A stretch of 56,223 nt of DNA, taken from contig CAYOTA010000008.1 in assembly GCA_964406795.1 (NCBI GenBank), positions 1 through 56,223 of the forward strand, written 5' to 3'. Below are positions 1 to 25,837 of the stretch, one piece after another. Position 1 is the first letter of the stretch; each line of letters starts with the position of its first letter. The notes beneath the pieces are model-generated. The model made no database searches. It was not told where the DNA came from and saw nothing but the letters and a program-made list of their open reading frames with translations. The translations under genes and the position numbers were made by a program. The stretch is from an uncultured Gammaproteobacteria bacterium. GTDB taxonomy: Bacteria > Patescibacteriota > Microgenomatia > Levybacterales > GWA1-39-11.

Positions 1-94
1 GAGTATCTTGATTCTTACTACCCCCAAGTGTTACCGAGGTACTCATCCAGTACATAATTTTGCAAATAAACTGCAATTCTTTTATAATTCACGC

Positions 95-514: not shown

Positions 515-546
515 GTTAGTTGTTGTTGCACCATCAAGACGTGCTG

Positions 547-1494: not shown

Positions 1495-1550
1495 AGGTTA
1501 AATTATACACAATTAGGTATTACGCCTTGTGTAAGGGAGTAGGGGATACG

Positions 1551-1841: not shown

Positions 1842-1953
1842 TTTATGAGCCTAGAAATAGGCGAGAAAAATACCGGGAGTCTCTAGCTGAAAGCTAAGAG
1901 TTAACGGTATGAATTATTATTATACTCGAATCAGGCGTCAAATACAAGAGAAT

Positions 1954-2868
1954 CTATCTTTTTTTGGCGAGTTTGTGGAATGGGTGGTAGTTAAAGCGTC
2001 CTTCAGCAATAAATATACCCAAGAACACGAGAATTGATCCTATCATAAAGTAAATGGTAGGTGATTCCCCTAAAAGCGGGTAGGCTATAATTACTGCAAT
2101 TATAGGATCCATATAAATAAAGAGCCCCACGTCCTCAACCGGCATATATTTAAGAGCCCACGTGTGCAAATAATACGCTATAACTGATGACAAAATAGCA
2201 CCAAAAAGAATTCCTAGTATTACCTGCTCATTGATTATGGGTAAAAATCCCACTCGCTGGATTTCATCAAAAAACATGGGTAGAAATCCCAGTGTTCCTA
2301 TTAAAAATGACCAAAATGTAATAGTGAGTGGGTCGTATCGTTTTATAATTTTTTTAATAAGAATTGCTGAGATTACACTTCCAAACATGGATAACACCAG
2401 AAACACATTACCTAGTAGTGATATATCAAATCCATGCTCAATTCCGGGAATAATAACAATACCGAGTATTCCTAAAAGGCCGGTGAGTCCGCCTAAAATT
2501 GTGCGTTTTTTAAGTTTGTCTTTTAGAAATATAAACCCAAAAAGAATTATAAAAAGAGGAGCAGAGGAGGCTATAATAGGAGCGTTTATACTGTCAGAGT
2601 ACTCTAGACCCAGGAAGAAAAAAGAAATGTTAATGGTGATACCGGTGAGCGCAATTACTATAATTGAGAAAAAGTCCTTGGGTTTAACCTGTAATTTATT
2701 TTTTACAAATGGGAGTAGGATAAGTGTTGCAAGCCCAAACCGCAGGATAGCCAACGTAAAGGGTGGGGTAGACATGAGCGACCATTTAAAGATGGGCGCG
2801 GCAGCTCCCCAAATAATATTGGCAATGATTAACGCAAAAATGGCTTTTTGGACAGTTGTAAGTCTCAT
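1954..2868 (-). CDS. EamA/DMT-family transporter
   Basis: 304 aa, about 10 hydrophobic helices in a two-fold repeat architecture typical of EamA domains. Confidence 0.75.
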   Translation of the reverse strand: MRLTTVQKAIFALIIANIIWGAAAPIFKWSLMSTPPFTLAILRFGLATLILLPFVKNKLQVKPKDFFSIIVIALTGITINISFFFLGLEYSDSINAPIIASSAPLFIILFGFIFLKDKLKKRTILGGLTGLLGILGIVIIPGIEHGFDISLLGNVFLVLSMFGSVISAILIKKIIKRYDPLTITFWSFLIGTLGFLPMFFDEIQRVGFLPIINEQVILGILFGAILSSVIAYYLHTWALKYMPVEDVGLFIYMDPIIAVIIAYPLLGESPTIYFMIGSILVFLGIFIAEGRFNYHPFHKLAKKR

Positions 2869-2910
2869 ATTTTTATTGTTCGAGTGAAAGGAGAACTGAA
2901 ATTATATCTA

Positions 2911-3165
2911 TTAATAATTACTCCATAGTGCTTCTTTTTTCTTCCTACTAAAATCTTTAACTTGATGCTCACGTTCCCTTGCCTGTGTTATGTTTGTAAA
3001 TTCTTCTGTCCATTTAAGTTCCTTGAATCCATGTTTTTCTGTGAACCTACTACCTTTTCCTGACCTATGCTGCTCAAGTCTTTGCTCAAGATTCCAAGTG
3101 ATACCAGTATAATAAAGTCCATCCATGCATTCAATGATGTAGACAATCCACTTCCATTGTTTCAC
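2911..3165 (-). CDS. GIY-YIG nuclease-domain protein (UPF0213-like)
   Basis: 84 aa. VYIIEC..GLYYTGIT...LEQRLEQH matches the GIY-(10)-YTG core with a downstream Arg/Glu helix. Confidence 0.75.
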   Translation of the reverse strand: MKQWKWIVYIIECMDGLYYTGITWNLEQRLEQHRSGKGSRFTEKHGFKELKWTEEFTNITQAREREHQVKDFSRKKKEALWSNY

Positions 3166-3259
3166 ATAATTAAGAGTATCAAATTACTATTCGGGATAAA
3201 ATTAGGAAACATACTATTTAGACTTCTCACTGTGTTCGAAGAATATAATTTAGGAAGAT

Positions 3260-4477
3260 TTAGCTTAACATCTGTATCGCATCGGAAACAGTCGCAGTTT
3301 TTTGCTCACGGGTGTCCAACGCTTTAATAGTTACCATACCTTTTTCTTTTTCTTCCGGTCCAATAGTTACCATGTAAGGGATTTTTTTCTTGATCGCATA
3401 TTTTAGTTGTTTTTCCATTTTTGCATTCGGATCTAGGTAGAGTTCTGTATTAATGTTATTGAGGCGCAATTCTTGCGCCAGCTTCTCTGAGTCAGGAAGG
3501 GAAATTTCATCAAACACTGTAACAAGCACTTTGGTAACTGACGGGCTTATTTTAAGCAGATTTTGGGACTCAAGCGCTTCCATCAGTCTATCAAATCCAA
3601 AGGCAAATCCTACGGCTGGTATGCTTGATCCTGAATTTATTGAAGGAGAGAACATTCCAATTAAATTATCATACCTTCCGCCACCGCCCACTGATCCTGC
3701 ATCATATCCTTCTATTTCAACTTCTATAATAATACCGGTGTAATAATCCAGACCGCGAGCAAGAGTTGGTTCAAAGGTTATCCAACTGCTAACTTCTAAC
3801 TTCTGACTACTAACAATATTAATTATTTCTTGAATGCGTTCTGTTGGTTTTGAATTCCTGACTGTTTCCAGGATTGCCTCATCAAGCCCTTTGGATGTTA
3901 GCTCGAGCCTAACACCATCTTCTCCAATTTTTTTCAGTTTATCAATTGCAATGATGGCTTCTTTTGGAACATCTTTAAAAGTTGCCCGGTCGTTTATTAA
4001 AATCTTGAAGTTTTTAAATCCAAGTCGTTCTAAAGCTGCCTTGGCAACCATTAGAATTTCGGAGTCCGCTGAGGCTGAATTAACCCCTGCAATATCTATG
4101 TCACATTGTAAAAACTCCCTAAACCTTCCTTTTTGTGTGTTTTCACCTCTCCATACATTTGACACTTGATAGCGTTTAAAAGGGGAGGAGAGTTGCTCAC
4201 CGTACTGGGCAACCACACGGGCTAGCGGAACAGTCTGGTCATACCGCATGGCGACACGTCTGTCGCCATTATCGGTAAATCTGTACATTAATTTATCTCC
4301 CTCATCTCCGTACTTTCCCATGAGGATTTCCTCATACTCCAGAGCAGGGGTTTCTAATGGTTCAAATCCATAAGACTCAAACACTTTTTTCAAAGTGTCT
4401 ATGACATATGTACGTTTCCTGGCTTCTTCGGGTAAAAAGTCCCTAAATCCTTTAAGTGTTTGAATATTTTGTGCCAT
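3260..4477 (-). CDS. hisS: Histidyl-tRNA synthetase
   Basis: N-terminus MAQNIQTLKGFRDFLPEE, class II motifs, GGGGRYDNL (HisB motif) and a C-terminal anticodon-binding domain. 405 aa. Confidence 0.9.
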   Translation of the reverse strand: MAQNIQTLKGFRDFLPEEARKRTYVIDTLKKVFESYGFEPLETPALEYEEILMGKYGDEGDKLMYRFTDNGDRRVAMRYDQTVPLARVVAQYGEQLSSPFKRYQVSNVWRGENTQKGRFREFLQCDIDIAGVNSASADSEILMVAKAALERLGFKNFKILINDRATFKDVPKEAIIAIDKLKKIGEDGVRLELTSKGLDEAILETVRNSKPTERIQEIINIVSSQKLEVSSWITFEPTLARGLDYYTGIIIEVEIEGYDAGSVGGGGRYDNLIGMFSPSINSGSSIPAVGFAFGFDRLMEALESQNLLKISPSVTKVLVTVFDEISLPDSEKLAQELRLNNINTELYLDPNAKMEKQLKYAIKKKIPYMVTIGPEEKEKGMVTIKALDTREQKTATVSDAIQMLS

Positions 4478-4497
4478 AGATTTGATACTATCATGTT

Positions 4498-5169
4498 TTA
4501 GGCTGTAGGTACAGATGTGCGGATGTATAAAACGCGATCTCTGTTTTCAGGATCCATGGCGCCCCTGGTATTTCCGGTTTTCCTAATTTCCCCATTTTGT
4601 CGTATAACTTCAGGTCCCAACACTTGCTGCATCCCAAACTTTTGCGCAACAGCCACCATAGGGCTTTGCCAGTTTGTACGCATAACAAGTGGAATTCCAA
4701 GTCTTTCTGATTCACTGACCATCGTTTGGGCAAATATATTGCTAATTCCCTGGCCTCTGTTCTCAGGTTTAACGCCTGTTTCGGAAAAATAAAACACGTT
4801 TTCAACTACGCCGCTTTCATTTAGCACTTGTTTAATAAGTTCCTGGCCAGTCTCTGTTTTATATTTTTCAGCGACCAGATCTTCTACGGATGTAGGAAAT
4901 CCCCATGCAAATCCTATTAGCTCCCCTGCCTCTTTTCTTTTTTTGTCAACTATAGCACCGGGCTTACTTGTTTCTTTTGAGATAGCGGAAAGTGTTTCGC
5001 GTCTGGGATAAAATGGCTCAAGTAGTGCATCTTCTGGGCACGGACAGACATCTTGGCCTTTTGTTTCCAGTCCAAATGTTTTGTCGCAGCTATCCCCGGT
5101 ACATTTTTTATATTCGTTCCAGGGTGGACCTGCAAATACTACTTCATATGTTTTTGCTAGTTCACTCAT
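4498..5169 (-). CDS. GNAT-family N-acetyltransferase-like protein with Cys-rich N-terminal segment
   Basis: Acetyl-CoA loop-like motif ENRGQGISN followed by a helix. The N-terminal segment reads CTGDSCDK...CPCPED. A canonical SD, GGAGGTG (complement of 5177..5183), lies 7 nt upstream of the ATG. Confidence 0.55.
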   Translation of the reverse strand: MSELAKTYEVVFAGPPWNEYKKCTGDSCDKTFGLETKGQDVCPCPEDALLEPFYPRRETLSAISKETSKPGAIVDKKRKEAGELIGFAWGFPTSVEDLVAEKYKTETGQELIKQVLNESGVVENVFYFSETGVKPENRGQGISNIFAQTMVSESERLGIPLVMRTNWQSPMVAVAQKFGMQQVLGPEVIRQNGEIRKTGNTRGAMDPENRDRVLYIRTSVPTA

Positions 5170-5243
5170 ATCTTTTCACCTCCCTTCAAAGACTTCGTCT
5201 TTTCAGGACCACGTTCAGGCAAGCTGAATGTGGCCATTTTGGC

Positions 5244-5269
5244 ACAAAAAAACCGCCTTGTCGGCGGTT
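5244..5269 (-). terminator. Rho-independent terminator downstream of the TrpR/YerC-like gene
   Basis: Stem AACCGCC (5251-5257) pairs with GGCGGTT (5263-5269) around a 5-nt loop. On the minus strand a T-run follows (plus-strand A-run 5246-5250). Confidence 0.6.
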
Positions 5270-5295
5270 TGTATAATATAGTTTTAACTACTAAA

Positions 5296-5628
5296 TTACA
5301 CCGCCGTAAGTACGGTGTTTACATGGCTTAGTTGATTTTTCTTATTTTTCATTTGTCTTTTGATTGCTAATTTATATCCATTCATTCCTTTGTCCAACCA
5401 TTTAGAAATACGTGCAATAGTGGTGCTGCTCATGCCCGTTTCTTTCTCTATTTTAAGATATGTGTCTTTTTTTGCGAGCATTTGGGCAACTTTCCATCTA
5501 TTGCTGAATTCTTTTAATTCTTCCTCGGTTAACAAATCCCGTAAAAATGCATTCAGTTCTGACTCGGTTTTTAAACAGAGTAGTGCTTTATACAATTCTT
5601 TTGTTTTGTGATCCGGGTTAAATTTCAC
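5296..5628 (-). CDS. TrpR-related YerC/YecD-family DNA-binding protein
   Basis: 110 aa. FLRDLLTEEELKEFSNRWKVAQML...GMSSTTIARISKWL matches the YerC/YecD (Trp repressor-like) HTH pattern. Confidence 0.75.
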   Translation of the reverse strand: MKFNPDHKTKELYKALLCLKTESELNAFLRDLLTEEELKEFSNRWKVAQMLAKKDTYLKIEKETGMSSTTIARISKWLDKGMNGYKLAIKRQMKNKKNQLSHVNTVLTAV

Positions 5629-5690
5629 TTTTGTTAACTAAAGTATAATACTTTATCTGAGTAAAGTCAAGAAGTGTATTATTACTCCGC

Positions 5691-5719
5691 TTGACAGCAC
5701 TATAGGGTAGGTTTATAAT
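5691..5719 (+). promoter_or_regulatory. Consensus sigma70-type promoter (TTGACA-17 nt-TATAAT)
   Basis: TTGACA at 5691-5696, a 17-nt spacer, then TATAAT at 5714-5719. The ATG of the next gene is 7 nt downstream (5727), so the transcript would be leaderless. Confidence 0.6.
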
Positions 5720-5726
5720 CCAAATT

Positions 5727-6140
5727 ATGCCTAGAATGTCTGAACAAGAGCCAGTATTTGATCAAGCCCTAAAACCTGTTTTACTAGGAAGGATTCATTT
5801 GTCAGTGTCAGCGGATGCAGCAATAAAAAGGGCGCGAGAAGTGGCTAATGATAGACACCAGCCGGTGGGACTTTCGCATATAGCATTTGCTTGTATGCTG
5901 GACGAAAACTTACGTCTAGATCTTGAGGATCGCATTGGAGAAGAGAAAACAAGCGAAGCGTTTAGGGCTGTTTCCGAAGCACTTAATTACCCTTCAAATC
6001 AAGGTATGAGTAGGTTGTTTTCCATGGCTAAATGGATTCATGGAAGAGGAGATGTGGAGGCGGAAGATTTATTACTTGCGTCAGCTAGTCTCCAGGCACA
6101 AACTCAATCTAGCCGAAAACACCTCAAACGCGTGGTATAG
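5727..6140 (+). CDS. Hypothetical protein with Clp_N-like double repeat
   Basis: Two helical repeats resemble the Clp N-terminal repeat: LSVSADAAIKRAREVANDRHQPVGLSHIAFACMLD and MSRLFSMAKWIHGRGDVEAEDLLLASASL. Weak call. Confidence 0.4.
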   Translation: MPRMSEQEPVFDQALKPVLLGRIHLSVSADAAIKRAREVANDRHQPVGLSHIAFACMLDENLRLDLEDRIGEEKTSEAFRAVSEALNYPSNQGMSRLFSMAKWIHGRGDVEAEDLLLASASLQAQTQSSRKHLKRVV

Positions 6141-6255
6141 CCACAAATTGTCAGGATTATGTTGTTTTTGAGTCAAGCTATACTTTCCACAAGGCGCTAC
6201 AATCTCTTCTAGATATGCAGTAGGAAGTTAAACACCTCTGCATTTTCGTTTTTTT

Positions 6256-7317
6256 ATGGCTGTTCCAGAAGCTTTTAGATATAATCCATCTGACCATTCT
6301 AGAAACCCGCAACGCGTTGCGCACTATACACGCGCACAAGCAATTGGTGTTTGGCAGCACAACAACCTGGCAAATACTGACACACTCAGAGCTTTTTTAA
6401 GTGGAGATAGAGAAGCGTACTCGCCAGAGAATGCTCAAGAAGTAGATAGGTTAAAGGCTGCAAACGCCAAATTTAAAGAAAGTGCATACACTCCTGAGGC
6501 TATGCAAGAGCGTTTTAAAATTCGTGATGCGTATACAGCAGCCGAAGCTAAGCTTGAGAATCCCACTGATATAGAGCGAGCACGTGCACGTATCCTAGCA
6601 CTTGATGGTGCAATAATCGTCACGGATTACGATAACACCATAACTAATGAAAAAAAGATAAGAAAAATAAGAGGGGTTAAGCCTGGACATCCGGGGGCAG
6701 TTGTTGCTGACCCTGTGTTAGCAGAGTTTGGCCACAAAGGATTTGCTGATGCATATACTGAATTATATTCTGCTTCTTTTCAGAAATTAGCCCAGGAATT
6801 TCCTGAAGATTTTTTTGAAAATGGGCGCACAACACCCTTGCGAGACGGAGCTTACGAGTTATTTCAAGCATTAAAGGATTCAAATATCCCCTTGCGGATA
6901 GCCAGTGCAAATTTGGACCTCGCAATTTATGGTACGTTATCGCATCTTCCCCACCCAGACGACACAGAAGTACACTCAATCACATTGGACTCAACTAATG
7001 CCGTGCACAAAGATGCAGTTATTGTGCACCAAGCACTGAAAGACAAAAAGGCCCCAATTTATATGGGAGATGGCGCGTCGGATATTCCTGCTATGGACGC
7101 CGCTGATGTTGTACCTTTTTATATTGCCTTGGAAGGTAGCGAATTTGCAAATGCGCTGAAGGAAAGGGGATTACTGCATTTTGAATATCAGACACATTAT
7201 GATATAAAGAACATCTTAACTGAAGTAGGAGTATTAAAAGAGTCGGGAGTGCCTAGATCAGGCTCCATGAATATTTCAGACATTCCTAGATTGCAAGAAT
7301 TAGCAGTTGTTTCATAA
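6256..7317 (+). CDS. HAD-superfamily phosphatase (phosphoserine-phosphatase-like core) with ~110-aa N-terminal extension
   Basis: HAD motif I is VTDYDNT (DxDxT), motif II is RIASAN, and motif IV is MGDGASD. The start codon is uncertain. Confidence 0.65.
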   Translation: MAVPEAFRYNPSDHSRNPQRVAHYTRAQAIGVWQHNNLANTDTLRAFLSGDREAYSPENAQEVDRLKAANAKFKESAYTPEAMQERFKIRDAYTAAEAKLENPTDIERARARILALDGAIIVTDYDNTITNEKKIRKIRGVKPGHPGAVVADPVLAEFGHKGFADAYTELYSASFQKLAQEFPEDFFENGRTTPLRDGAYELFQALKDSNIPLRIASANLDLAIYGTLSHLPHPDDTEVHSITLDSTNAVHKDAVIVHQALKDKKAPIYMGDGASDIPAMDAADVVPFYIALEGSEFANALKERGLLHFEYQTHYDIKNILTEVGVLKESGVPRSGSMNISDIPRLQELAVVS

Positions 7318-7321
7318 AAAT

Positions 7322-7996
7322 ATGCCAGAAAAATTTAAACTTATACCTATTGAAGATGCTTCCGGCACTCAATTTGACCGCTTAAGAAAAGGCGTAAAGG
7401 ATTCCCGTGGGCGACTAGACGTATGGGTGAACCCGTATCCTAATTACCCAGGAAAAGAATTTTTTGGTAATTTTGAGCCATCCCAGGATTATAAAGGTGC
7501 TCGTGACAACACACTCAAAAGACAAGGCCAAGTTGTAATTTTTGAAGACAATGGTATGAAAGATTTGAGCGCAAATTTAAGAAGAAGCGGATTTAGGGGT
7601 GAAGCCATTGTCATACCTACGATCAGGGGAGAAGTGGACCCAAACTGGACAGATTGGGAGGGCATGGGAAACCATCTAAAAGAAGCAGGTGTTTCTAGTA
7701 TTTCTCTTGGTGGTGCATTTTTATGGGAACATCACGCTTCTGATGAAGGAAACGTGCGTGTGCCAAAGTTTGGCGAATTACCAGTTTTCGACAACTTACC
7801 ATTTGGTGACGCACTTGATGCAGTTCGACTAGATGTTATGAAGTTGAAAGATCAAGGAGTAAAAGAGCCGGCTGCCAGCAACTGGGTTGACTCAGGATAT
7901 CTTCCCGGTGGAGCGGTAGGACTTGTTGCCCTTAATTTTTTGAGAGTAGGACTTAATCCAAGCATGACACAAGCCTCAGCCCGTCCTCGTAGATAA
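7322..7996 (+). CDS. Hypothetical protein
   Basis: ORF 7307..7996 begins at TTG, and the first ATG (MPEKFK) is at 7322, just after the upstream stop. No recognisable motif. The composition is GC-richer than the window average. Confidence 0.5.
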   Translation: MPEKFKLIPIEDASGTQFDRLRKGVKDSRGRLDVWVNPYPNYPGKEFFGNFEPSQDYKGARDNTLKRQGQVVIFEDNGMKDLSANLRRSGFRGEAIVIPTIRGEVDPNWTDWEGMGNHLKEAGVSSISLGGAFLWEHHASDEGNVRVPKFGELPVFDNLPFGDALDAVRLDVMKLKDQGVKEPAASNWVDSGYLPGGAVGLVALNFLRVGLNPSMTQASARPRR

Positions 7997-8004
7997 AAAA
8001 CAAA

Positions 8005-9075
8005 ATGGATATAAAAATACTGTCCGAAATCAAAAATAATTTTTTGTCAGAGCTTGAGAAGGCTAATTCCGGAGAGAAAACGAGCTTGCCATTTATCATA
8101 CATGAAATCCCTGAATTTTCTTTAGTGAAGGATGGTGAAGTATTTCAGGTAATAATTATTGGTGGAACGAATGGTGTAATCGCGGAAGTTAAAAAAAATG
8201 GAAAATCATGTGAAATTATTACGCAGAAAAGTATAACCCTTCCTATCTTGGCAAATAAAGAAGATTTTTTATTACTTATAGATCAGCATCTTTCCCCAAA
8301 TGTCTCTGTATTAGCGCTTAACTTTGCGTTTGCAATAAGTCCGGTGTTTGAAAATGGAAAGCTGGATGGAAAATTATTAGTAGGAGCAAAGGGGCATGCA
8401 TTTAGAGGGCTTGTGGGTGAGAATATTGGGTTAGCTGTTGAAAAATCTATTCTAGAAAAACGAAATCAAAAGATCTTGGTTTCAGTTGCAAATGACACAG
8501 TGTGTTTGCTTCTGTCAGGACTTGAAAAGAATGAACCTTCAAAGCTTGCCGCAGGAGTTGTTGGAAGTGGTATGAATTTCGCAGTTTTCCTAGATTCTCA
8601 GAAATTAGTTAATTTGGAATCAGCAAATTTTAATAAATTCACTTTGTCCCCGGAAGTAGTTGAGATAGATGCGGAATCTTCAAGCCCAGGGACATATCTC
8701 TATGAAAAAGCTGTGGCAGGTGTGTATTTATATAAGCAATTTAATATATTGTTACGGCATAATCATATTTCTCATCCGGCTGTTTCGTCTACTGAAGAAA
8801 TGAACACGCTTGCAAAAGAAAATACCACAGAAGTAGGGCACTTGGCTCGAAAATTAATCATGCAGTCAGCACACTTAGTATCTTGTCAGGTAGCAGCGAT
8901 TATGGAATTTAAAAAAACTGATATGACATTTGTTATTGAAGGAAGTCTGTTTTGGAAAGGATATGAGTATCAAAAAACAGTTGAAGAAATTTTGAAAACA
9001 TTAATAAATTATAAAGCGGATTTTGTGGAAGTAGAGAATAGTGGAATTATTGGCGCCGCCCATTTAGTTATGTAG
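8005..9075 (+). CDS. Hexokinase-fold sugar kinase
   Basis: The order of motifs matches the hexokinase family: IIIGGTNGV (LGGTNxRV), LALNFAFAISP (LGFTFSFP), VANDTVCLL (NDTVGTL), GVVGSGMNFAV (GTGxN), PGTYLYEKAVAGVYL (PGxxxFEKxxSGxYLGE), IEGSLF, and NSGIIGAA at the C-terminus. Confidence 0.7.
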   Translation: MDIKILSEIKNNFLSELEKANSGEKTSLPFIIHEIPEFSLVKDGEVFQVIIIGGTNGVIAEVKKNGKSCEIITQKSITLPILANKEDFLLLIDQHLSPNVSVLALNFAFAISPVFENGKLDGKLLVGAKGHAFRGLVGENIGLAVEKSILEKRNQKILVSVANDTVCLLLSGLEKNEPSKLAAGVVGSGMNFAVFLDSQKLVNLESANFNKFTLSPEVVEIDAESSSPGTYLYEKAVAGVYLYKQFNILLRHNHISHPAVSSTEEMNTLAKENTTEVGHLARKLIMQSAHLVSCQVAAIMEFKKTDMTFVIEGSLFWKGYEYQKTVEEILKTLINYKADFVEVENSGIIGAAHLVM

Positions 9076-9090
9076 AAAATATTGGAGAAC

Positions 9091-9160
9091 ATCTAACATC
9101 TAACATCTAACATCTAACATCTAACATCTAACAACTAATAACTAATAACTAACCAATAAC
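9091..9160. repeat. Heptanucleotide microsatellite of 10 units
   Basis: ATCTAAC x6 (9091-9132), then the degenerate units AACTAAT, AACTAAT, AACTAAC, CAATAAC. It lies between two convergent gene ends (9075 and 9171). Confidence 0.95.
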
Positions 9161-9170
9161 TTTTAAATCC

Positions 9171-9590
9171 TTACCCGGCTCCATGTAATTTGTTTGACCT
9201 TTTTTGTTGAACTGCCAGTGGTTCCATTTTTTTCTTTGGTGCTACATATATTTTAGATGACTGCCCCTGTAAGTTATTCATTTGTGTATTTGAGTTAGCC
9301 TGTCCGCGCTCGGCGCTTTCAGCTCCTTGTTGGGTTCTGGGTTGTTCCTGAGGTGCAGGCATTTCCTGCTGCATAGCAAGTCCGCTTCTGATTTTGGCTA
9401 GTTTTGCCTGATCTTTCATTTTATATTCTTGTGTTTTTTGTGCTACTTCAGGGGGATTAATTGGTGCCAGGCCTTCTAAAATATTTATTGGGGTTTTAGC
9501 AATTTCGGAAACTGTTTCCTTTGCAATCTTTTTACCTTGTTCTCCAAGTTCACTTACAAAATCCCCTAATACAGTTCCTTTTTGCGGCAT
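9171..9590 (-). CDS. Hypothetical low-complexity (Gln/Ala/Lys-rich) protein
   Basis: 139-aa ORF. An extended -10 (TGaTACTAT, complement of 9600-9608) lies 9 nt upstream of the ATG. No domain recognised. Confidence 0.45.
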   Translation of the reverse strand: MPQKGTVLGDFVSELGEQGKKIAKETVSEIAKTPINILEGLAPINPPEVAQKTQEYKMKDQAKLAKIRSGLAMQQEMPAPQEQPRTQQGAESAERGQANSNTQMNNLQGQSSKIYVAPKKKMEPLAVQQKRSNKLHGAG

Positions 9591-9677
9591 AATGCATTCA
9601 TAGTATCACTCATATGCAAACATGATCAAGTATGAATTTGACAAAAATCAATGTTAGTATTACACTAAATGCCTTCT

Positions 9678-10811
9678 ATGAAGAAGCTTCTTGTTTTGCT
9701 CGTTCTCTTGTTGATTGTTGCATTTTTATGGCAACAGGCACTTCCACTATTTGGAAAAAAGTTGCCTTTACAAAGTTCTGAAACAGTGAAAATCCTAAAA
9801 GAAGAGAATTTAGTAGTAGATGTTGTTAAAAAGGTTGGCCCGTCCGTTGTAACAATAGGCGTTGAAGTGTCCCCAAATAGTCGCAATGGGCAGGAATTAG
9901 GCCCGTTTTCGCTTTTCTTTGAAGAGCCGTCTGTAACCCCAGAAAATAGTGAGGTAGAAGATGAGTATATTGGCTCAGGGTTTGTACTCACTAAAGAAGG
10001 GCTTATTGCAACAAATAAACATGTTGTGTCGTCCGGAACAGACAGATATATAGTGGTGGATGATAAAGGAAATAAGTATGAAGTTGAAAAGGTGTACAGA
10101 GATCCATTAAATGATTTGGCAATTCTTAAAACTTCTAAAACTCCAACTGGCGGATTTAAAGAAATTTCCTTTGGTGAATCAGGAAATGTAGAAGTAGGCC
10201 AGTTTGTGATTGCAATTGGAACGGCTCTTGGTGAGTTTAGAAATACAGTTACAACAGGCGTTGTGTCAGGTTTAGGACGTGGAATTACTGCCGGAAGTGC
10301 CTTTCAGGGTTTTGCGGAAAGGCTTGATAACGTAATCCAAACAGATGCTGCTATTAACCCAGGAAACAGTGGGGGACCACTCCTAAATGCGTCAGGACAA
10401 GTAATTGGAATTAATACTGCAGTTGCACAAAACGGGCAAAACATTGGTTTTGCAATTCCTATTAATATTATTAAGCAAAGTGTTGAAAACTTTAATGAAA
10501 CAGGCCAATTTAATAGACCATATTTAGGTGTCTCATACATCATACTTTCCAAACAAGCAGCTTTATTAAATGGACTTCCTGAGGGAGCATATGTGCGCGC
10601 AGTGATCCCAGATTCGTCAGCAGATAAAACTGGAATTCAGGTAGATGACATACTATCAGAAATTGATGGAAAAAAAATTACAAATGAAAATGGGGGACTT
10701 GCTGGAGTTATATCAAAAAAGAAGATAGGCGACAGCGCAAAATTAAAAGTAATAAGAGGGGACGAAACGTTGGAGTTAGAAGTAGCACTTGAAGCCGCAC
10801 CACAAGAGTAA
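9678..10811 (+). CDS. HtrA/DegP-family serine protease with C-terminal PDZ domain
   Basis: MKKLLVLLVLLL signal anchor, trypsin-like catalytic motifs (TNKHVV, DLAILK, GNSGGPLLN) and a PDZ domain at the C-terminus. An alternative ATG at 9669 lies only 2 nt after the -10 box TACACT (9661-9666), so 9678 is preferred. Confidence 0.85.
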   Translation: MKKLLVLLVLLLIVAFLWQQALPLFGKKLPLQSSETVKILKEENLVVDVVKKVGPSVVTIGVEVSPNSRNGQELGPFSLFFEEPSVTPENSEVEDEYIGSGFVLTKEGLIATNKHVVSSGTDRYIVVDDKGNKYEVEKVYRDPLNDLAILKTSKTPTGGFKEISFGESGNVEVGQFVIAIGTALGEFRNTVTTGVVSGLGRGITAGSAFQGFAERLDNVIQTDAAINPGNSGGPLLNASGQVIGINTAVAQNGQNIGFAIPINIIKQSVENFNETGQFNRPYLGVSYIILSKQAALLNGLPEGAYVRAVIPDSSADKTGIQVDDILSEIDGKKITNENGGLAGVISKKKIGDSAKLKVIRGDETLELEVALEAAPQE

Positions 10812-10873
10812 TTGACCACTTTTGGAAAGGCCTTGTTTTTGAGCCTTGTTTTTTTGTATAATACAAACACTTT

Positions 10874-11146
10874 ATGCGAAATTATAAATTGATAGTTGTT
10901 CTAAAAGGGGACATTACAAAAGACAAAAAACAGAAAATGCTGGAAAATATTCAGACATGGGCTGGAGCTGTTGACACAAAGGTCTCCGAATTAGGAGAGA
11001 AAAAATTGGCCTACACTATTAAAAGAGAAAAAAAGGGAGATTATGTTGCATTGAATTTCAATTCAGAAAATATTGCAGTAGATTTTGAGAAAAGGTTAAT
11101 CAATCAAGACGATATTTTACGGCACTTAATGATACGAGTAAAGTAA
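10874..11146 (+). CDS. rpsF: 30S ribosomal protein S6
   Basis: Starts MRNYKLIVVL, is 90 aa, and is followed by the ssb and rpsR synteny. Confidence 0.9.
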   Translation: MRNYKLIVVLKGDITKDKKQKMLENIQTWAGAVDTKVSELGEKKLAYTIKREKKGDYVALNFNSENIAVDFEKRLINQDDILRHLMIRVK

Positions 11147-11154
11147 TTTAAAAA

Positions 11155-11625
11155 ATGGCGCGTTCATTGAATAGAGTACAATTGATTGGGAATTTGACAC
11201 GGGATCCGGAGTTGCGTTACACACCTCAGGGAACTGCGGTATGTACATTTGGGCTCGCTACTAATAGGAGTTGGACAACGGACAACGGAGAAAAGAAAGA
11301 GGACACAGAATTTCACAGAATTGTTGTGTGGAACAAATTAGCAGAGTTGTGTTCTCAGCTCTTATCCAAAGGACGCAAAGTGTACGTGGAAGGAAGAATT
11401 GCGAATAGATCATGGACAGGACAGGACGGTACACAAAAAAGTACAACAGAAATTGTTATTGAGGATATGATAATTCTTGATAACAAAAGGACAGAAGGAA
11501 ACACTGACTCTCATCAAGAGGCGCCAGTTGTTGAAAAGCCTATTGCTGAAAGTCCAAAAACTGAAAAAGTAGAGACTAAAAAAGCAGTATCCGAGGATAT
11601 TAATCCGGACGATATACCTTTCTAA
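11155..11625 (+). CDS. ssb: Single-stranded DNA-binding protein
   Basis: OB-fold N-terminus LNRVQLIGNLTRDPELRYTPQGTAVCTFGLATNRSW and the acidic C-terminal tip DDIPF. Confidence 0.95.
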   Translation: MARSLNRVQLIGNLTRDPELRYTPQGTAVCTFGLATNRSWTTDNGEKKEDTEFHRIVVWNKLAELCSQLLSKGRKVYVEGRIANRSWTGQDGTQKSTTEIVIEDMIILDNKRTEGNTDSHQEAPVVEKPIAESPKTEKVETKKAVSEDINPDDIPF

Positions 11626-11646
11626 CGACTAACTAATAACAAATAT

Positions 11647-11889
11647 ATGAGTAACCAACGAAAAATACATATGAAGCGTGAAGTTCCAAAGAACTGCAGC
11701 TTTTGTAAGGAAGACAAAAATCCTGAATTTATGGAAACAGTAGGTCTTGAAAAATTTTTAACTGAGCGAGGAAAAATACTATCATCATCTAAAACTGGAG
11801 TTTGCACAAAGCACCAGAAAAAAATTACAATTGCAGTTAAACGAGCACGCCACCTAGCGCTTCTTCCATTTATAGTTCGTCCTGAGTAA
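11647..11889 (+). CDS. rpsR: 30S ribosomal protein S18
   Basis: 80 aa with [11 protein letters not shown] near the C-terminus, located after ssb. Confidence 0.9.
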
Positions 11890-11944
11890 TTTTCTTCTTG
11901 CTTTTTCCCTTCATTTTTTACTACAATAAGAACTCAATAAATCC

Positions 11945-13234
11945 ATGAAAAAAAGGTTTTCCGTCTCTGTATTTCACATTGTTTTAGTTATTCTTTTAGC
12001 CGGGGGCTTAGGTTTTGTTATCGGAACTACTAAAATCAACACTTCTTGGAAGGGATTTATGCCTATTGCTACAATTCAGCAAAAGGATCCACCACCGTCC
12101 CAAGATCTAGACATGGGTCTTTTCTATGAAGTTTTAGATAAAGTAAACCGCGAATACTATGACAAGACTAAAATAAACTCAGACAAAGTGCTTCAAGGTG
12201 CCATTTCAGGCATGCTCCAAAGTCTTGACGATCCATATACTTCTTTTTTTCCCCCTAAACAAAATACAGATTTTAAAACGCAGTTAGCAGGTGAGTTTTC
12301 AGGAATTGGTGCTGAGTTGGGTTTAAGTTCGGAAAACCAAGTGATGATTATTGCCCCAATAGATGGCTCTCCAGCACAAAAAGCTGGCGTTAAGGCAGGA
12401 GACCTTGTTTTGTCGGTTGACGGAAATGATACGTATGGGTGGACATTGGCTAAGGCCGTTGAGTACATACGTGGACCAAAAGGAAGTGAAGTAAGCTTAT
12501 CTATCTTGCGGGATAAGGCAAAGGAGCCTGCAAAAGTAGCTATTAAGCGTGACACAATAGTTATAGAAAGTGTAAAGGGCTGGGTTAAAAACTTTACATG
12601 TGCTAATAACACATGTAAAGAAGCTAAAAGCTGTAGTGGAGCTAATTGTTCTAAGATTGCATACATTAGACTTTCTCAGTTTGGGGATAAAACAAATGAA
12701 GAATGGGTAAAAGTAATTAATGATTTATATCCTAAAATGAGCGGAGACAGTTTTAAGGGAATCGTATTGGATGTAAGGAATAATCCTGGTGGTTATTTAC
12801 AAGATGCAGTTTTTATTGCATCCGAATTTATAAAAGAGGGTGTGATTGTGTCTCAAGTGGACGGTGCACAGGCAAAATTAGACATGCCTGTTTCCAGAAC
12901 TGGTTTACTCACAGAACAACAGGTTATAGTTCTCACTAACAAAGGATCAGCGTCTGCATCGGAAATTGTGTCTGGAGCATTGCGTGATCACAAAAGAGCA
13001 AAGTTACTGGGAGAAACTACATTTGGTAAGGGAACTATTCAGCAGGCAGTGGACGTAGATGGTGGAGCATCGGTTCATATTACAGTTGGTAAATGGATTA
13101 CGCCAAATGGGACATGGGTGCACAAAAACGGCCTGAAGCCTGATATTGAGGTTAAATTTGATGAAAAGAAGTCAGCGGAGACTCCGGGAATTGATAATCA
13201 GCTCCAAGCAGCCATTCGAGAATTAACAAAGTGA
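11945..13234 (+). CDS. Carboxy-terminal processing (S41) peptidase with PDZ domain
   Basis: N-terminal membrane anchor, PDZ domain (GIGAELG...PAQKAGVKAGD), S41 core (LDVRNNPGGYL, GSASASEIVSGAL, TFGKGT). A Cys-rich insert is present (FTCANNTCKEAKSCSGANCSK). Confidence 0.85.
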   Translation: MKKRFSVSVFHIVLVILLAGGLGFVIGTTKINTSWKGFMPIATIQQKDPPPSQDLDMGLFYEVLDKVNREYYDKTKINSDKVLQGAISGMLQSLDDPYTSFFPPKQNTDFKTQLAGEFSGIGAELGLSSENQVMIIAPIDGSPAQKAGVKAGDLVLSVDGNDTYGWTLAKAVEYIRGPKGSEVSLSILRDKAKEPAKVAIKRDTIVIESVKGWVKNFTCANNTCKEAKSCSGANCSKIAYIRLSQFGDKTNEEWVKVINDLYPKMSGDSFKGIVLDVRNNPGGYLQDAVFIASEFIKEGVIVSQVDGAQAKLDMPVSRTGLLTEQQVIVLTNKGSASASEIVSGALRDHKRAKLLGETTFGKGTIQQAVDVDGGASVHITVGKWITPNGTWVHKNGLKPDIEVKFDEKKSAETPGIDNQLQAAIRELTK

Positions 13235-13469
13235 ACTACTTTCGGCTTTTAACGTTTTAGCTCTATTTGCAATTGCTAATAGTTCACCTTTCTCTGCCTT
13301 TATTTGATCCATAAACTGACCTATCTTAGTATGTAATGCAACTCGTGATGATTTTGATACTTCACGCGTATTGCAGAGGAGAGCTTCTGTTTTCGAATCA
13401 GTCCGATAAAGGCTTCCTACATGTCCATCATTATCCATCTTTTATAGAAATTCACGTTGCCCACAGTTA

Positions 13470-13512
13470 TCAATACAAATCAACCCCAGGGGTTGCGTAG
13501 CTACGCAACCTA
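13470..13512. repeat. REP-like palindromic repeat, copy A
   Basis: Contains the perfect 20-nt palindrome GGTTGCGTAG/CTACGCAACC (13491-13510), overlapped by a second palindrome CAACCCC-A-GGGGTTG (13481-13495). Confidence 0.9.
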
Positions 13513-13517
13513 GATAT

Positions 13518-14183
13518 TTACGCTTCAAGAAGTAGATGCATGATTCGGGACAGTTTTCGTTGGTAGTCCGCTCGATCATTCACAAATTCTTTATATTCAT
13601 CTTTAGTTTTAAACTGAGACAGGATTATATTTTTGTCATACCAGCTATAGTTAGAATTACTTATATACTCGGGATAAGATGACCATCTGTACGCTTCAAG
13701 TTCCCGTGTATCTCTTACCACATGGGATGTGTATGGGTTGAGATGAATATATCTTGAAACATGAAGAAGTTGAGTAGTATCTTCAATGTGTACGGATTTA
13801 AATTCTCCCTGTAATAAGTGTCCACTTCTTTTGTGTTTAGTATTAATATATCTAGTTAGGCTATTTTGAAAATTTCCCATAAATTTTGCAATTCCATTAT
13901 CCTGTTCTTGTTGAATTAATAAATGAAAATGATTAGGCATTAAACATGCACAAATAACATTTACAATTTTTTCTCTTGGGTGAGTAGACGCTGTAGTCTT
14001 GTATTCATCACTCATTGCAATATATTTGGAATAACTTGGGAGATTTTTGTAGGTGTAGTAACTTAATATTCCCATTGTCCGTTTGTAATCAGCTTTATTG
14101 AAGAATATTGGTTGTTTATTTACACCACGATTGAAAACATGGTAGTATTCTCCAGTAACAAGAGGAACTTTTCTAGTTGGCAT
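13518..14183 (-). CDS. HUH/Y1 transposase (REP-associated tyrosine transposase / IS200-like, Y1_Tnp family)
   Basis: YYHVFNRG, then the HUH motif CLMPNHFHLLI, then YIHLNPY carrying the candidate catalytic Tyr. The ORF extends to a TTG at 14219, with ATGs at 14204 and 14183. 14183 (MPTRK) aligns best with the paralog at 43345..43995. Confidence 0.8.
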   Translation of the reverse strand: MPTRKVPLVTGEYYHVFNRGVNKQPIFFNKADYKRTMGILSYYTYKNLPSYSKYIAMSDEYKTTASTHPREKIVNVICACLMPNHFHLLIQQEQDNGIAKFMGNFQNSLTRYINTKHKRSGHLLQGEFKSVHIEDTTQLLHVSRYIHLNPYTSHVVRDTRELEAYRWSSYPEYISNSNYSWYDKNIILSQFKTKDEYKEFVNDRADYQRKLSRIMHLLLEA

Positions 14184-14215
14184 ATTACTAACATAATAAA
14201 CCATATCCTGAGATG

Positions 14216-14258
14216 TCAATACGAATCAACCCCAGGGGTTGCGTAGCTACGCAACCTA
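14216..14258. repeat. REP-like palindromic repeat, copy B
   Basis: Same sequence and orientation as copy A. It overlaps the 5' end and upstream region of the transposase ORF. Confidence 0.9.
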
Positions 14259-14331
14259 AGGATTTGAATTATTTGAAGAAAGCTTTAGGTTAATCCTATC
14301 AAGGGTTGTTAAAATCTGGTAAAATGAAGCC

Positions 14332-15732
14332 ATGAAGCTGTATAACACATTATCCCGTTCTCTAGAGGAGTTTGTACCATTGGATGAACAGACCGTCAAA
14401 ATGTACACCTGTGGCCCTACTGTATATGACTATGCACACATAGGGCATATGAGAAAGTACATAGGAGATGATATTTTACGCCGCACCCTTCAAAAAACCT
14501 GGGAAGTGAAACATGTTATGAATGTAACAGATGTGGGTCATTTGACTTCGGATTCAGATACCGGAGATGACAAAATGGAGCGGGGTGCTATAAAACATGG
14601 AAAAACTGTTTTGGAAGTAGCACGTTTTTTTGAAGAAGACTTTTTAAAGTCCATCAAAAAAGTAAATGTTTTAACCCCTACGGTTATTGCCCGCGCCACA
14701 GAACACATTGATGACCAGATCGCACTCATTGAAGAATTGGTTAAAAAGGGATACACCTACCAGACACATGAGGCCATTTATTTTGATGTTTCTAAGTTTC
14801 CCGAATACACTAAACTATCCCAGCAGAACTTAGATGACAAAATTACCGGCGCTCGGGGAGAGGTTGTAGTGGATAGCAAAAAAAAGAATCCTGCGGATTT
14901 TGTTTTATGGTTTTTTACTGTAGGAAGATTTGAAAATCATGTGCTCCGCTGGAATTCTCCATGGGGTGAGGGATTTCCGGGCTGGCACATAGAGTGTAGT
15001 GCCATGGCCATGCGCTATTTGGGTCCTACACTGGACATACACACGGGTGGAGTAGACCATGTGAGCATTCACCACACAAATGAGATTGCACAGTCAGAAT
15101 GTGCAACTGGAGTTGAATTTGTACGTTTTTGGATCCATCACGACTTTTTACGGGTTGAAGGAGAGAAAATGAGTAAGTCTTTAGGCAACTTAATTACTAT
15201 AAAAGATATTGAAAGCAGAAAAATTTCTCCACTTGCCTTTAGATATTTAACATTTCAAACCCATTATAGATCAGAGATGAACTTTACGTGGGAGTCACTG
15301 GATGCAGCGCAAACAGCACTTCAAAAATTGTATGAAACCGCTTCATCCTTAACCCAGGTTAATGAATATGCTGATATAGATTATATGGGCCGCTTTATGG
15401 ATGCGCTGGAGCAGGATTTAAATATGCCAAAAGCAATATCTATATTATGGGAAGTTGTAAGGTCTCAAAAAATAGAGGATTCAGTGAGAGCTAAAACAAT
15501 TCAGGAAATGGACACGGTATTAGGGCTTGAGATATTTGAAAATTCTAAAAAACAGTTAAAAATACCACCAAATGTTATGAGACTTGTGGAGGAGCGAGAT
15601 GCGTTTAAAAAGAACAGACAGTATACTCATGCTGATCATGCGAGGAATAAGATTGAGAAAATGGGGTATATACTAAAAGACGTAGTAGATGAGCATAAAA
15701 AGAAGCGCACGATTGTTTTAAGAAAAGTCTAA
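14332..15732 (+). CDS. cysS: Cysteinyl-tRNA synthetase
   Basis: Starts MKLYNTLSR, has CGPTVYDYAHIGHMR (HIGH) and KMSKSLGN (KMSKS). 466 aa. Confidence 0.95.
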   Translation: MKLYNTLSRSLEEFVPLDEQTVKMYTCGPTVYDYAHIGHMRKYIGDDILRRTLQKTWEVKHVMNVTDVGHLTSDSDTGDDKMERGAIKHGKTVLEVARFFEEDFLKSIKKVNVLTPTVIARATEHIDDQIALIEELVKKGYTYQTHEAIYFDVSKFPEYTKLSQQNLDDKITGARGEVVVDSKKKNPADFVLWFFTVGRFENHVLRWNSPWGEGFPGWHIECSAMAMRYLGPTLDIHTGGVDHVSIHHTNEIAQSECATGVEFVRFWIHHDFLRVEGEKMSKSLGNLITIKDIESRKISPLAFRYLTFQTHYRSEMNFTWESLDAAQTALQKLYETASSLTQVNEYADIDYMGRFMDALEQDLNMPKAISILWEVVRSQKIEDSVRAKTIQEMDTVLGLEIFENSKKQLKIPPNVMRLVEERDAFKKNRQYTHADHARNKIEKMGYILKDVVDEHKKKRTIVLRKV

Positions 15733-16530
15733 TTATCTTGCAGTCGGACGTGGAGTTAAAGTTGCAGATCTGACAGAGGTTGTAGGAGTTGTGACAACCG
15801 CTTCCACCTCAGCCAATCTTTTCAGATCATCTGACAGTGCTAAGCCAGGAAAGTGAATCATTCTTTCTGCATTTAACTGATTTTTTGTTGTGTCATCCAT
15901 AAATCCTGAAGCATAAACTCGTACACCCGGTAAAACTTTACTAAATCCCGATTTTACTAAATCATCAACCTCTGTATAGGACGATATTTTTGTACTTGTT
16001 TCAATATCTATACTAATTTTTTCACCTTTTTTATTAACTGCAGTAACTACAAAATTTCGTCTGTCCACTTCTGTTATAACTCCGTCAAAAAGGGTAGGGA
16101 TGTTGGACACGGTATTAACAAATCTAGCTAAGATCTGATCCGTTCCTTTATTTAACAATCCCACAATTCCCAAAGTGTCTCCCTTTTTAATATCTGATAT
16201 GCCAAATGTTTTAGATGAGGGGTTTGAAAACTTCGTGATTTCATCAATATTCACAATGCGGCGCTTATTATGTATATCTGTTAGCGTTATTTGTGTGCTT
16301 GTTGTTTGTGTTACCATTCCCAAAATTCCTCGTTTTTCAACCAACTTTAGTTCTGCAACACGGGACGCAACTAGGTCCTTAATTTTTTCAATCTGGCTTG
16401 AGTCTCCAATTGAAGTAGGAGACGATGAAATGCTAGGTTTTGGAGTAAGAGTGGTTGTTTGCGCTAAAGTATCAATTGGCATAATCCCGGAAGTAGCTAT
16501 CAACATAATTACAAGTAGTAGTATTTTCAT
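15733..16530 (-). CDS. Secreted hypothetical protein
   Basis: Signal peptide MKILLLVIMLIATSG followed by a Ser/Thr/Pro-rich linker. No domain recognised. Confidence 0.55.
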   Translation of the reverse strand: MKILLLVIMLIATSGIMPIDTLAQTTTLTPKPSISSSPTSIGDSSQIEKIKDLVASRVAELKLVEKRGILGMVTQTTSTQITLTDIHNKRRIVNIDEITKFSNPSSKTFGISDIKKGDTLGIVGLLNKGTDQILARFVNTVSNIPTLFDGVITEVDRRNFVVTAVNKKGEKISIDIETSTKISSYTEVDDLVKSGFSKVLPGVRVYASGFMDDTTKNQLNAERMIHFPGLALSDDLKRLAEVEAVVTTPTTSVRSATLTPRPTAR

Positions 16531-24772: not shown

Positions 24773-25687
24773 GTGCCTACACTAAAAACCAAAATTGATG
24801 AGAAAGAAGTACTCTTATTTCTTCAAAAAAATATTGACCCTCAGATTACTTCTCTGGAATTCTTAAAGGGCGGGGAAATGTCTCAAGCATTTAGTTATGC
24901 AAGTAGTGAAAAAGATTATGTAATCAGACTTTATAAAAATGATGAAGCTTTTAAAAAAGATAAGTTTGCCTATGATAATTACTCTTCCGTTAAACTTTCC
25001 ATCCCAAAAGTGTACGAGATAGGCAAATTTTCAGAGACGTTGTATTACTGTATCTCAAGCCTCATAAAAGGCACAATTCTAGATCTATTAAGCTTTGAGC
25101 TACAAGGTAAAATGATAGATAAGGAGTTAGATATTATGCACGCAATACATAACACAAAAGTTGTAGGTAATGGATACGGGTGGTGGGATGAGAATGGGAA
25201 CGGAACATATACCAGTTGGAATAACTATATTTTGCATAAAAAAGATGAAATTTATTCAAATTGGGAAATGTTATATAAAAATTCATTTTTAGAAAAAGAA
25301 ATGATAGACATAATTTATCAGGAAATAAATAAGCTAGTAGCATTTCTACCGGAAAATAGGTATTTAGTTCACGCAGATCTTGGGTGGAGCAATGAGATTT
25401 CTGATAACACAAATATTACGGGAGTATTTGATTGGGGCAATTCTGTGTATGGGGACTTTTTATATGATGTTTCATTTAAACATTTCTGGTCATCCGACTC
25501 ACAGTTTTTGCAAAGATATTTAGACTCTTTAGATAAAAACGAATTTAATTTAAAGCATGTAGAAGAGAGAACTAGATGCTACCTGTTGCATATCGGACTT
25601 GGTGTATTAGGATTTTTTGCTGAATCCGGTCAGAAAGATAAGTACGACAAAAATAAAAAAAGAATTGAAGGTCTTCTTTCAATTTAA
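24773..25687 (+). CDS. Aminoglycoside/choline-kinase-type phosphotransferase (APH family)
   Basis: Brenner motif HADLGWSN, then FDWGNSVYGD. GTG start at 24773, 6 nt after the extended -10 TGaTATACT (24758-24766). Confidence 0.75.
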   Translation: MPTLKTKIDEKEVLLFLQKNIDPQITSLEFLKGGEMSQAFSYASSEKDYVIRLYKNDEAFKKDKFAYDNYSSVKLSIPKVYEIGKFSETLYYCISSLIKGTILDLLSFELQGKMIDKELDIMHAIHNTKVVGNGYGWWDENGNGTYTSWNNYILHKKDEIYSNWEMLYKNSFLEKEMIDIIYQEINKLVAFLPENRYLVHADLGWSNEISDNTNITGVFDWGNSVYGDFLYDVSFKHFWSSDSQFLQRYLDSLDKNEFNLKHVEERTRCYLLHIGLGVLGFFAESGQKDKYDKNKKRIEGLLSI

Positions 25688-25720
25688 CCTCAGAACAATC
25701 CGTTCTCCCGAGGTTAAGCT

Positions 25721-25762
25721 ACAAATCAACCCCCGAGGTTGCATAGCTACGCAACCTAAGGT
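25721..25762. repeat. Orphan REP-like repeat, copy C (degenerate)
   Basis: ACAAATCAACCCCCGAGGTTGCATAGCTACGCAACCTAAGG is the same family and orientation as copies A and B, with 3-4 substitutions. A partial extra copy, CCCGAGGTTAAGCTAC, precedes it at 25707-25722. Confidence 0.85.
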
Positions 25763-25837
25763 TACATGTTAATTCTGAAGATGGTAAGAACATTTGTACT
25801 AGAATACTAGCTTCAATACGTGATATAATTATTACTT

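Follow-up and report, generated by a model that had tools for sequence, protein, structure and literature searches.

RAYT-type Y1 enzymes are the best-known domesticated bacterial transposase. Among the described groups, TnpA-Y1 subclass 2.1 (Quentin et al. 2018, PMC6006769) is the same as group 1 of the RAYTs, which are associated with repetitive extragenic palindromes (REPs) (Bertels et al. 2017, PMC5581495), and covers most of the TIRYTs and TIRtrons of Di Nocera et al. 2013 (PMC3733652). Its signature consists of NH[YF]H, FQ in place of the W motif, Y[IV]HLNP, an SS tail and a length of ~238 aa (Table 1, PMC6006769), and its genes are reported either to have no REP-like hairpins adjacent to them or to carry long terminal inverted repeats with GGGGWSAS (PMC6006769, PMC5581495, PMC3733652). 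In the E. coli REPtron (TnpA_REP, subclass 2.2; structure 4ER8), hundreds of REPs occur as inverted pairs whose hairpins have a GTAG at their 5' foot. Here we analysed a stretch of patescibacterial DNA of 56,223 nucleotides (contig CAYOTA010000008.1, hereafter the window), in which a first-pass annotation made from the sequence alone had drawn attention to a Y1/HUH transposase gene bracketed by repeats at positions 13470-14258. We read this Y1 unit, with a probability of about 0.6, as a REPtron/TIRtron-like cassette, that is, a class-2 Y1 HUH enzyme with a TnpA_REP-like fold and a cognate hairpin on each side. This reading is based on the enzyme class, the closest structure, the cognate flanks, the paralogue-specific repeats, the existence of hairpin-only copies and the co-occurrence of such a copy with the unit. 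REP/RAYT, TIRYT and IS200/IS605 systems are themselves well described (PMC6006769, PMC5581495, PMC3733652); what is new here is a variant of REP/RAYT systems. Patescibacteria, the hosts in this case, do not figure in the surveys of subclass 2.1, and our literature search found no paper on such units in Patescibacteria, in keeping with the initial remark that no such system was known to have been characterised in this kind of genome.

The gene at the centre of the unit (13518-14183, minus strand) encodes a 221-aa protein (P0001) with an HUH motif at N84-H85-F86-H87, a catalytic tyrosine, Y145, within RYIHLNP, and WSSY in its tail. Since all homologues begin with MP.RK, we assigned the start codon to the ATG at 14183; the upstream repeat, originally placed over the 5' end of the open reading frame (ORF), overlaps only a mechanically called version of the ORF that starts with TTG at 14219. 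In an alignment of 32 homologues that are 50-75% identical, N84, H85, H87, Q138 and Y145 were invariant, bearing out the NHFHLL and YIHLNP motifs that had first been noticed, and the HUH motif aligned with that of ISDra2 TnpA. The protein also passed a profile check against Pfam Y1_Tnp (PF01797), scoring 39.8 bits against a cut-off of 23. Among the NCBIfam models, REP_Tyr_transpos gave 52.6 bits, whereas the IS200 model (transpos_IS200) gave 16 bits against a cut-off of 55. The tyrosine motif is of the class 2 Y---NP type (YIHLNP) and not the Y---Q of the IS200 type, whose TnpA measures ~130-150 aa. In an AlphaFold2 model of the protein (predicted local distance difference test score 88.8), Y145 lies on a helix spanning residues 136-152. 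A Foldseek search with this model returned 4ER8, the E. coli TnpA_REP together with a REP hairpin, as its top match (E 1.4e-6; template modelling score 0.72, target), followed by the TnpA structures of ISDra2 and IS608. Sequence identity to 4ER8 is 13%, and the protein has a helical C-terminal extension of 60 aa; Pfam gave no DnaA_C or helix-turn-helix match for this C-terminal tail. Of the two labels offered by the first-pass annotation, RAYT-like and IS200-like, the former is thus favoured by the profile scores, the Y---NP motif and the closest structural match.

The repeats bracket the gene in direct orientation, at 13470-13512 and 14216-14258 on the plus strand, so that the unit spans ~790 bp. 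The two 43-nt copies differ solely by A or G at position 8 and are identical over their final 35 nt, as had been reported, and a repeat search of the window extended the similarity to 55 nt (13465-13519 and 14211-14265). Read on the minus strand, as the gene is, the downstream copy (13465-13519, core 13470-13512) begins 5 nt past the stop codon, and 33 nt separate the end of the upstream copy (14211-14265, core 14216-14258) from the start codon. Each copy contains the two overlapping palindromes originally described. One is the perfect 20-nt palindrome GGTTGCGTAGCTACGCAACC (13491-13510 and 14237-14256), which recurs with 1 mismatch at 25737-25756 and had 0 matches in 100 shuffles of the sequence; the other is an inner hairpin, CAACCCC-A-GGGGTTG on the plus strand and CAACCCC-T-GGGGTTG in gene sense (13481-13495 and 14227-14241). 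Since a CAACC arm is common to both, the two hairpins are mutually exclusive, and folding of either strand as single-stranded DNA favours the 20-nt palindrome, with a free energy of -8.9 kcal/mol and a z of about -3. The proposed switch between two hairpins is therefore possible in this lineage but is not a rule of the family, because the 20-nt palindrome is a lineage-specific addition that has already decayed in the upstream repeat of the relative L101, and only the inner hairpin of the CAACCCC/GGGGTTG type is conserved family-wide. The GTAG of this lineage forms the apex of the 20-nt palindrome, at a distance of 5 nt on the 5' side of the inner hairpin. The unit has both the same-strand subterminal hairpins at both ends that are typical of IS200/IS605 elements and the gene flanked by cognate hairpin repeats that is typical of REPtrons, the repeats being direct here and not the usual inverted pairs.

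When set beside the described systems, the protein shares with subclass 2.1 the NHFH motif, FQ replacing W (within NFQNS), YIHLNP, the WSSY tail and a length within about 220-240 aa, and the unit shares with it a low copy number per genome and repeats of its own that flank the gene and are either moderately abundant or confined to the flanks. The Y1 family resembles subclass 2.1, and a provisional assignment as subclass 2.1-like would be one by motifs only, not by profile or tree. Unlike subclass 2.1 and the TIRYTs, it has short GC-rich hairpins, direct orientation, overlapping alternative stems and an embedded -35 box, and the GGGGWSAS of the TIRYTs is only partly fitted by GGGGTTGA and GGGGTGG. 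With the E. coli REPtron the unit has in common the class-2 Y---NP motif and the top structural match, a single gene between its own hairpins, intergenic hairpin-only copies and paralogue-specific repeats; it departs from the REPtron in having 1 solitary copy in 56 kb, direct orientation and a GTAG 5 nt from the hairpin foot. Its resemblance to the IS200/IS605 elements IS200, IS608 and ISDra2 lies in the Y1 HUH fold, in same-strand subterminal hairpins at its two ends and in a size of ~0.7-0.8 kb, which is that of IS200, as well as in a hairpin 5' of the gene that is able to insulate it from outside transcription. In contrast to these elements, there are no multiple identical copies in the 56 kb, and we found a long residence beside cysS and hairpins that occur without the gene.

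The sequence further suggests that the repeats double as an upstream insulator and promoter and as a downstream terminator. A promoter-like site on the minus strand (14190-14219) consists of a -35 box, TTGACA, at 14219-14214, where the upstream repeat has its 3' end, and a -10 box, TATGTT, at 14195-14190, with 18 nt between the two. The ATG of the gene follows 6 nt after the -10 box, and given this proximity a leaderless mRNA is predicted. The same promoter geometry, defined as at least 9/12 matches with the -10 box ending 4-9 nt 5' of the ATG, was present in 37/75 family loci compared to 0/410 random windows. At both flank copies the inner hairpin with its T-rich tail was flagged as terminator-like, which applies to the downstream copy on the gene strand because the hairpin is followed there by the T-rich tail. 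A search of the first unit against Rfam, at gathering and permissive thresholds, returned chance-level matches only, indicating that the repeats belong to no known RNA family.

In addition, a tblastn search with the first protein against all sequences collected detected a second Y1/HUH gene in the window (43345-43995, minus strand), one that the first-pass annotation had not listed. Its 216-aa product is 41% identical to the first, contains MPNHFHF and RYIHLNP, and scores 31.2 bits with Pfam Y1_Tnp. The second unit spans 43305-44093 and is flanked by direct repeats, also on the minus strand, that are unrelated to those of the first: the upstream copy (44041-44093) has a 12-bp outer stem, TCTAATGTTTAG/CTAAACATTAGA, around ACTTC-C-GAAGT, and the downstream copy (43305-43357), 74% identical to the upstream one, overlaps the stop codon. 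The window therefore holds one copy of each Y1 type. Two paralogues were found in 4 loci including the window, and in these each paralogue has a distinct hairpin on both sides, like the classical RAYTs, each of which has its own REP family (PMC6006769).

The hairpin-flanked layout is the rule across a very large Y1 family. A protein homology search gave more than 7,800 matches among the candidates scored, and in a library of representatives at 50% identity 1,485 clusters matched with E values no higher than 1e-30 and 15,762 with E values no higher than 1e-10. Where source names were present, the homologues came from Parcubacteria/Patescibacteria, and the genes around the unit in the window indicate Candidatus Levybacteria. 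On annotated plasmids from other phyla, the best homologues reach no more than 33% identity and carry the annotation 'transposase'. We gathered 80 metagenome loci with a family profile, plus the loci of close relatives, and used for each test those with enough flank. Upstream and downstream flanks resembled each other beyond the 99th percentile of cross-locus pairs in 48/70 loci with both flanks present, the repeat always lying ~75 to 25 nt 5' of the ATG and within ~60 nt after the stop codon. Hairpins of at least 5 bp occurred in 65/71 upstream and 67/71 downstream flanks. The loop-proximal stem was the same on both sides in 36/63 loci. Stems vary between loci with their pairing kept, as in GGTTG/CAACC (window, L007 and L101), GGTGG/CCACC (L008) and GGTGT/ACACC (L009), and most are of the (C/A)ACC-N-GGT(G/T) type. 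Repeat similarity rises with protein identity (rho 0.25; 1/2000 permutations) and is recognisable only above ~55% protein identity. The flank repeats are clearly direct in the window lineage and about ten other loci, and several loci with perfect palindromes have reverse-complemented loops, that is, inverted orientation. A third complementary segment, which permits alternative pairing, was enriched but not universal (18 upstream cases against 3.2 expected). The more distant homologues lie in unrelated gene neighbourhoods.

Copies of the hairpin also occur away from the gene. A solitary, diverged copy elsewhere in the window had been noted before, and we located it at 25711-25765 (minus strand; 73% identity, 20-nt palindrome with 1 mismatch), in the spacer that separates an APH-type kinase gene (24773-25687) from efp (25838-26389); its orientation is that of both flank copies, and it is antisense to its neighbours. 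The L007 genome has two hairpin-only copies in 40 kb, one of which (13712-13755 of its contig L092) is missing from the window. The 3 copies of the window and the 4 of the L007 genome are all oriented like the Y1 gene; since GC skew follows gene orientation here, the skew gives no assignment of the hairpins to the leading or lagging strand. Solitary copies are rare in most genomes, with 2 full-length ones in 370 kb around 37 loci. Wider collections were scanned as well: the palindrome had 5 single chance matches, in unrelated bacteria, among GTDB species genomes, a set that does not include the source genome; a 33-nt composite pattern had no match in metagenomes; and a scan of viral contigs gave one chance match. 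In one distant family member, L060 (Ga0190286_1000496, 1-16044), whose protein is 41% identical, the flank hairpin TTCYCCACTTCGTAGGTGGAA occurs 18 times in 16 kb. These copies are all intergenic and all on the strand of the gene, on which a G-T pair makes the better hairpin, and some form dimers with a conserved spacer (AAAACCCAGTACCAGAGCGCCTTTT), with a similar picture in L058. The L060 series is a true REP-like amplification.

To place the unit among its relatives, we used the identities of CysS and DnaB, which define three groups: the window with L095 and L098; L007 with L008 and L101; and L097. The Y1 unit adjoins cysS, from which it is divergently transcribed, in four genomes (window, L007, L008 and L101), and CysS is 73-75% identical between the clades that carry it there. 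At the same site, L095/L096 have an S41 peptidase gene, 59 nt and then cysS, with neither Y1 gene nor hairpin, and in L097 an unrelated 137-aa ORF lies between ctp and cysS and the unit is absent. Hence the syntenic comparison that had been proposed gave a divided answer, a shared position in four genomes and absence from L095/L096 and L097, and presence or absence does not run along the CysS/DnaB tree, given the empty L095 and L097. Since the entire ctp-cysS spacer differs between empty and filled states, the ends of the element and its target site are not definable from the empty sites. The solitary copy behaves similarly. The L007 genome has it, too, at the corresponding orthologous position (L092 4488-4532), whereas the Y1-less relatives L094 and L100 have a compact 26-nt spacer between the APH-type gene and efp with the same junction and without the copy. 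L100 and L097 lie on one contig; L094 stems from the L095 project and is similarly related to the window, its identity with the L095 genome being unproven. At this site, two lineages have exactly the same junctions in the filled state and two in the empty state, as precise events could produce, though this does not prove them. Two genomes have both the Y1 unit and the efp-upstream copy and two have neither, a pattern that requires at least 2 changes on the tree; with four genomes only, this co-occurrence is suggestive.

The flanking copies are nearly or fully identical within a genome (42/43 positions in the window, 47/47 in L007) and yet differ between the two genomes, indicating that they have been homogenised within each genome. 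L008 carries a different stem type and, beside its own repeat, a degenerate remnant of the L007-type repeat. The fast divergence of the Y1 gene reflects either co-evolution with its own site or replacement, and the nucleotide identities do not decide between the two. Horizontal replacement of the L008 gene was considered: its low amino-acid identity is not assignable to such an event, and the nucleotide identity of the L008 Y1 region, 73%, is close to the 76% of the neighbouring genes.

Around both sites we made some further observations. The content of the S41 peptidase-cysS spacer varies (window 13235-14331; L008 5278-6000; L097 4457-5000; L098 1-469): depending on the genome, it is a Y1 unit and a small ORF, an extra ORF of 168 aa, one of 137 aa, one of 95 aa, or nothing (59 nt, L095). 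Pfam gave no match for any of the extra ORFs. The small ORF of the window (13223-13438, minus strand, 71 aa), just downstream of the Y1 unit and likewise without a Pfam match, is weakly conserved in L007 (10801-10986; 35% identity), with a common TREVS..RVALH..FMD.I motif. Near efp, the L007 genome has no APH-type kinase gene, and a remnant of its 3' end, ATTCAATGCAGCCTCAAGAAAACA (vs TTTCAATTTAACCTCAAAACAA), stands beside the solitary hairpin (L092 4440-4470).

These results allow a mechanism to be proposed, in which the Y1 enzyme most likely recognises and processes hairpins in single-stranded DNA. If it works like the TnpA of IS608/ISDra2 and TnpA_REP of E. coli, the enzyme would bind the GC-rich inner hairpin, CAACCCC-T-GGGGTTG, in single-stranded form, and would cut and rejoin the strand beside it by means of Tyr145 and an HUH-bound metal. 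Such activity could keep the two flank copies alike, could occasionally seed or remove hairpin-only copies and, over evolutionary time, may allow the whole unit to be lost or replaced. The best reading of the unit would be that it is partly resident and, as we infer, partly mobile over evolutionary time.

Several observations weigh against a REPtron/TIRtron-like cassette. The score of 52.6 bits falls below the 80-bit equivalog cut-off of REP_Tyr_transpos. GT[AG]G was not found at 0-2 nt 5' of the hairpin foot, its place in REPtrons, and GTAG is missing from most family repeats; the flanks are direct, as opposed to the inverted pairs of classical REPtrons, with some family members having inverted loops. 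Whereas classical REPs are dispersed, these hairpins hardly occur outside the gene flanks in most genomes. Among L007, L008 and L101, Y1 is only 66-78% identical, against 91-95% for CysS, which is unlike a settled domesticated gene. Binding, cleavage, the strand used and mobility are all inferred. Because of the low copy number, the missed equivalog cut-off and the polymorphism of the unit, the 'domesticated REP/RAYT' label of the first-pass annotation fits only in part. Much the same evidence gives some room to a different explanation, possible though on balance unlikely, in which the ~790 bp at 13470-14258 are an autonomous minimal insertion sequence (IS) of the IS200/IS605 type, with the hairpins as its left and right ends and movement by single-strand 'peel and paste'. 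We keep it in view because of the direct repeats, low copy number, lack of GTAG at the foot, embedded promoter, fast evolution and presence/absence polymorphism. It would account for same-strand direct hairpins around a unit of IS200-like size, the clean empty ctp-cysS sites in L095/L096 and L097, a presence that departs from the CysS/DnaB tree, the unrelated gene contexts of distant homologues, the L007-type remnant in L008, which suggests replacement, and, through cut-and-paste movement, the single-copy state. However, no second identical or near-identical full unit exists in the 56 kb, the only other Y1 gene being 41% identical; the unit sits beside cysS in four genomes across the CysS divergence given above; the protein is of class 2, far below the IS200 cut-off; hairpin-only copies exist and reach high numbers in one member; and exact ends and a target site cannot be defined from the empty sites. 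A REPtron-like cassette and a rarely moving IS200-like element are not mutually exclusive.

A further explanation, which we consider improbable, is that the repeats serve mainly in regulation, as DNA or RNA elements whose likeness is maintained by gene conversion, the Y1 protein having an unrelated cellular role in single-stranded DNA. The terminator-like inner hairpin with a T-rich tail at both copies, the -35 box TTGACA that ends the upstream copy, the promoter geometry conserved in half of the family and the scarcity or absence of copies beyond the gene flanks in most genomes all suit such elements. They would leave unexplained why each paralogue has a distinct repeat on both sides and why repeat and protein co-vary, why a solitary copy antisense to its neighbours is conserved in two genomes, and how the L060 amplification arose; moreover, in the closest solved structure an enzyme is bound to just this kind of hairpin. 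An assembly artefact, raised as a concern at the outset and conceivable because near-identical copies ~750 bp apart permit mis-joins, has a negligible chance of being the cause of the flanking duplication. One base and the outer flanks distinguish the copies, the same architecture recurs in the independent assemblies L007, L008 and L101, made from other samples, and in the 48/70 family loci, and L006, an independent Logan contig of this sequence, includes the upstream copy unchanged and stops within the downstream one, as it would at a true repeat. CRISPR arrays and integron attC sites were also considered and rejected: there is no array and no adjacent integrase of the tyrosine-recombinase type, the XerC-like gene at 35004 being 20 kb off. 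Beyond the REPtron/TIRtron-like cassette that we prefer, a bolder and rather doubtful extension is that the unit belongs to a widespread site-specific single-stranded DNA cassette of Patescibacteria. Its enzyme, acting on two identical hairpin sites, would cut out, exchange or reinsert the gene that encodes it, with a hairpin as 'landing site', and the overlapping alternative stems beside the -35 box would form a conformational switch by which binding of the enzyme is coupled to its own transcription. Were this so, solitary copies may be landing sites or scars, and the family may form a self-regulating recombination module apart from REP amplification and IS transposition.

Two other features of the window may be recorded here. 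Upstream (5') of a XerC/XerD-like integrase gene (35004-35945) lies a mostly non-coding stretch of ~1.7 kb (33291-35004; L092 12252-13817 in the L007 genome) with blocks conserved in both genomes and a recurring motif, TTATGTCGTACA(A/T)TA, which once forms an inverted pair (33868-33900); GC skew changes sign and genes converge near 35 kb. This stretch, in which Rfam found nothing, could be a terminus/dif-like region or an unfamiliar RNA. In addition, a tandem array of ~12 units of 7 nt (AACATCT and variants) occupies 9074-9164, between the convergent ORFs 8005-9075 (plus strand) and 9171-9590 (minus strand).

For the largest subclass of these enzymes (2.1/group 1), cognate hairpins had been reported lacking, and the Patescibacteria branch with its motifs supplies a candidate DNA substrate. 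The layout is that of a hairpin, a promoter, a gene predicted to be leaderless and a second hairpin, with hairpins that co-vary with the protein, and ultra-small, streamlined genomes still retain one or two such Y1 units. For annotation, these units explain recurrent contig breaks and 'transposase' calls in Patescibacteria genomes. The family also provides a natural series, from genomes with no copies through those with flank copies only to those with high copy numbers, which could reveal whether enzymes of this type move hairpins, move themselves or regulate themselves.

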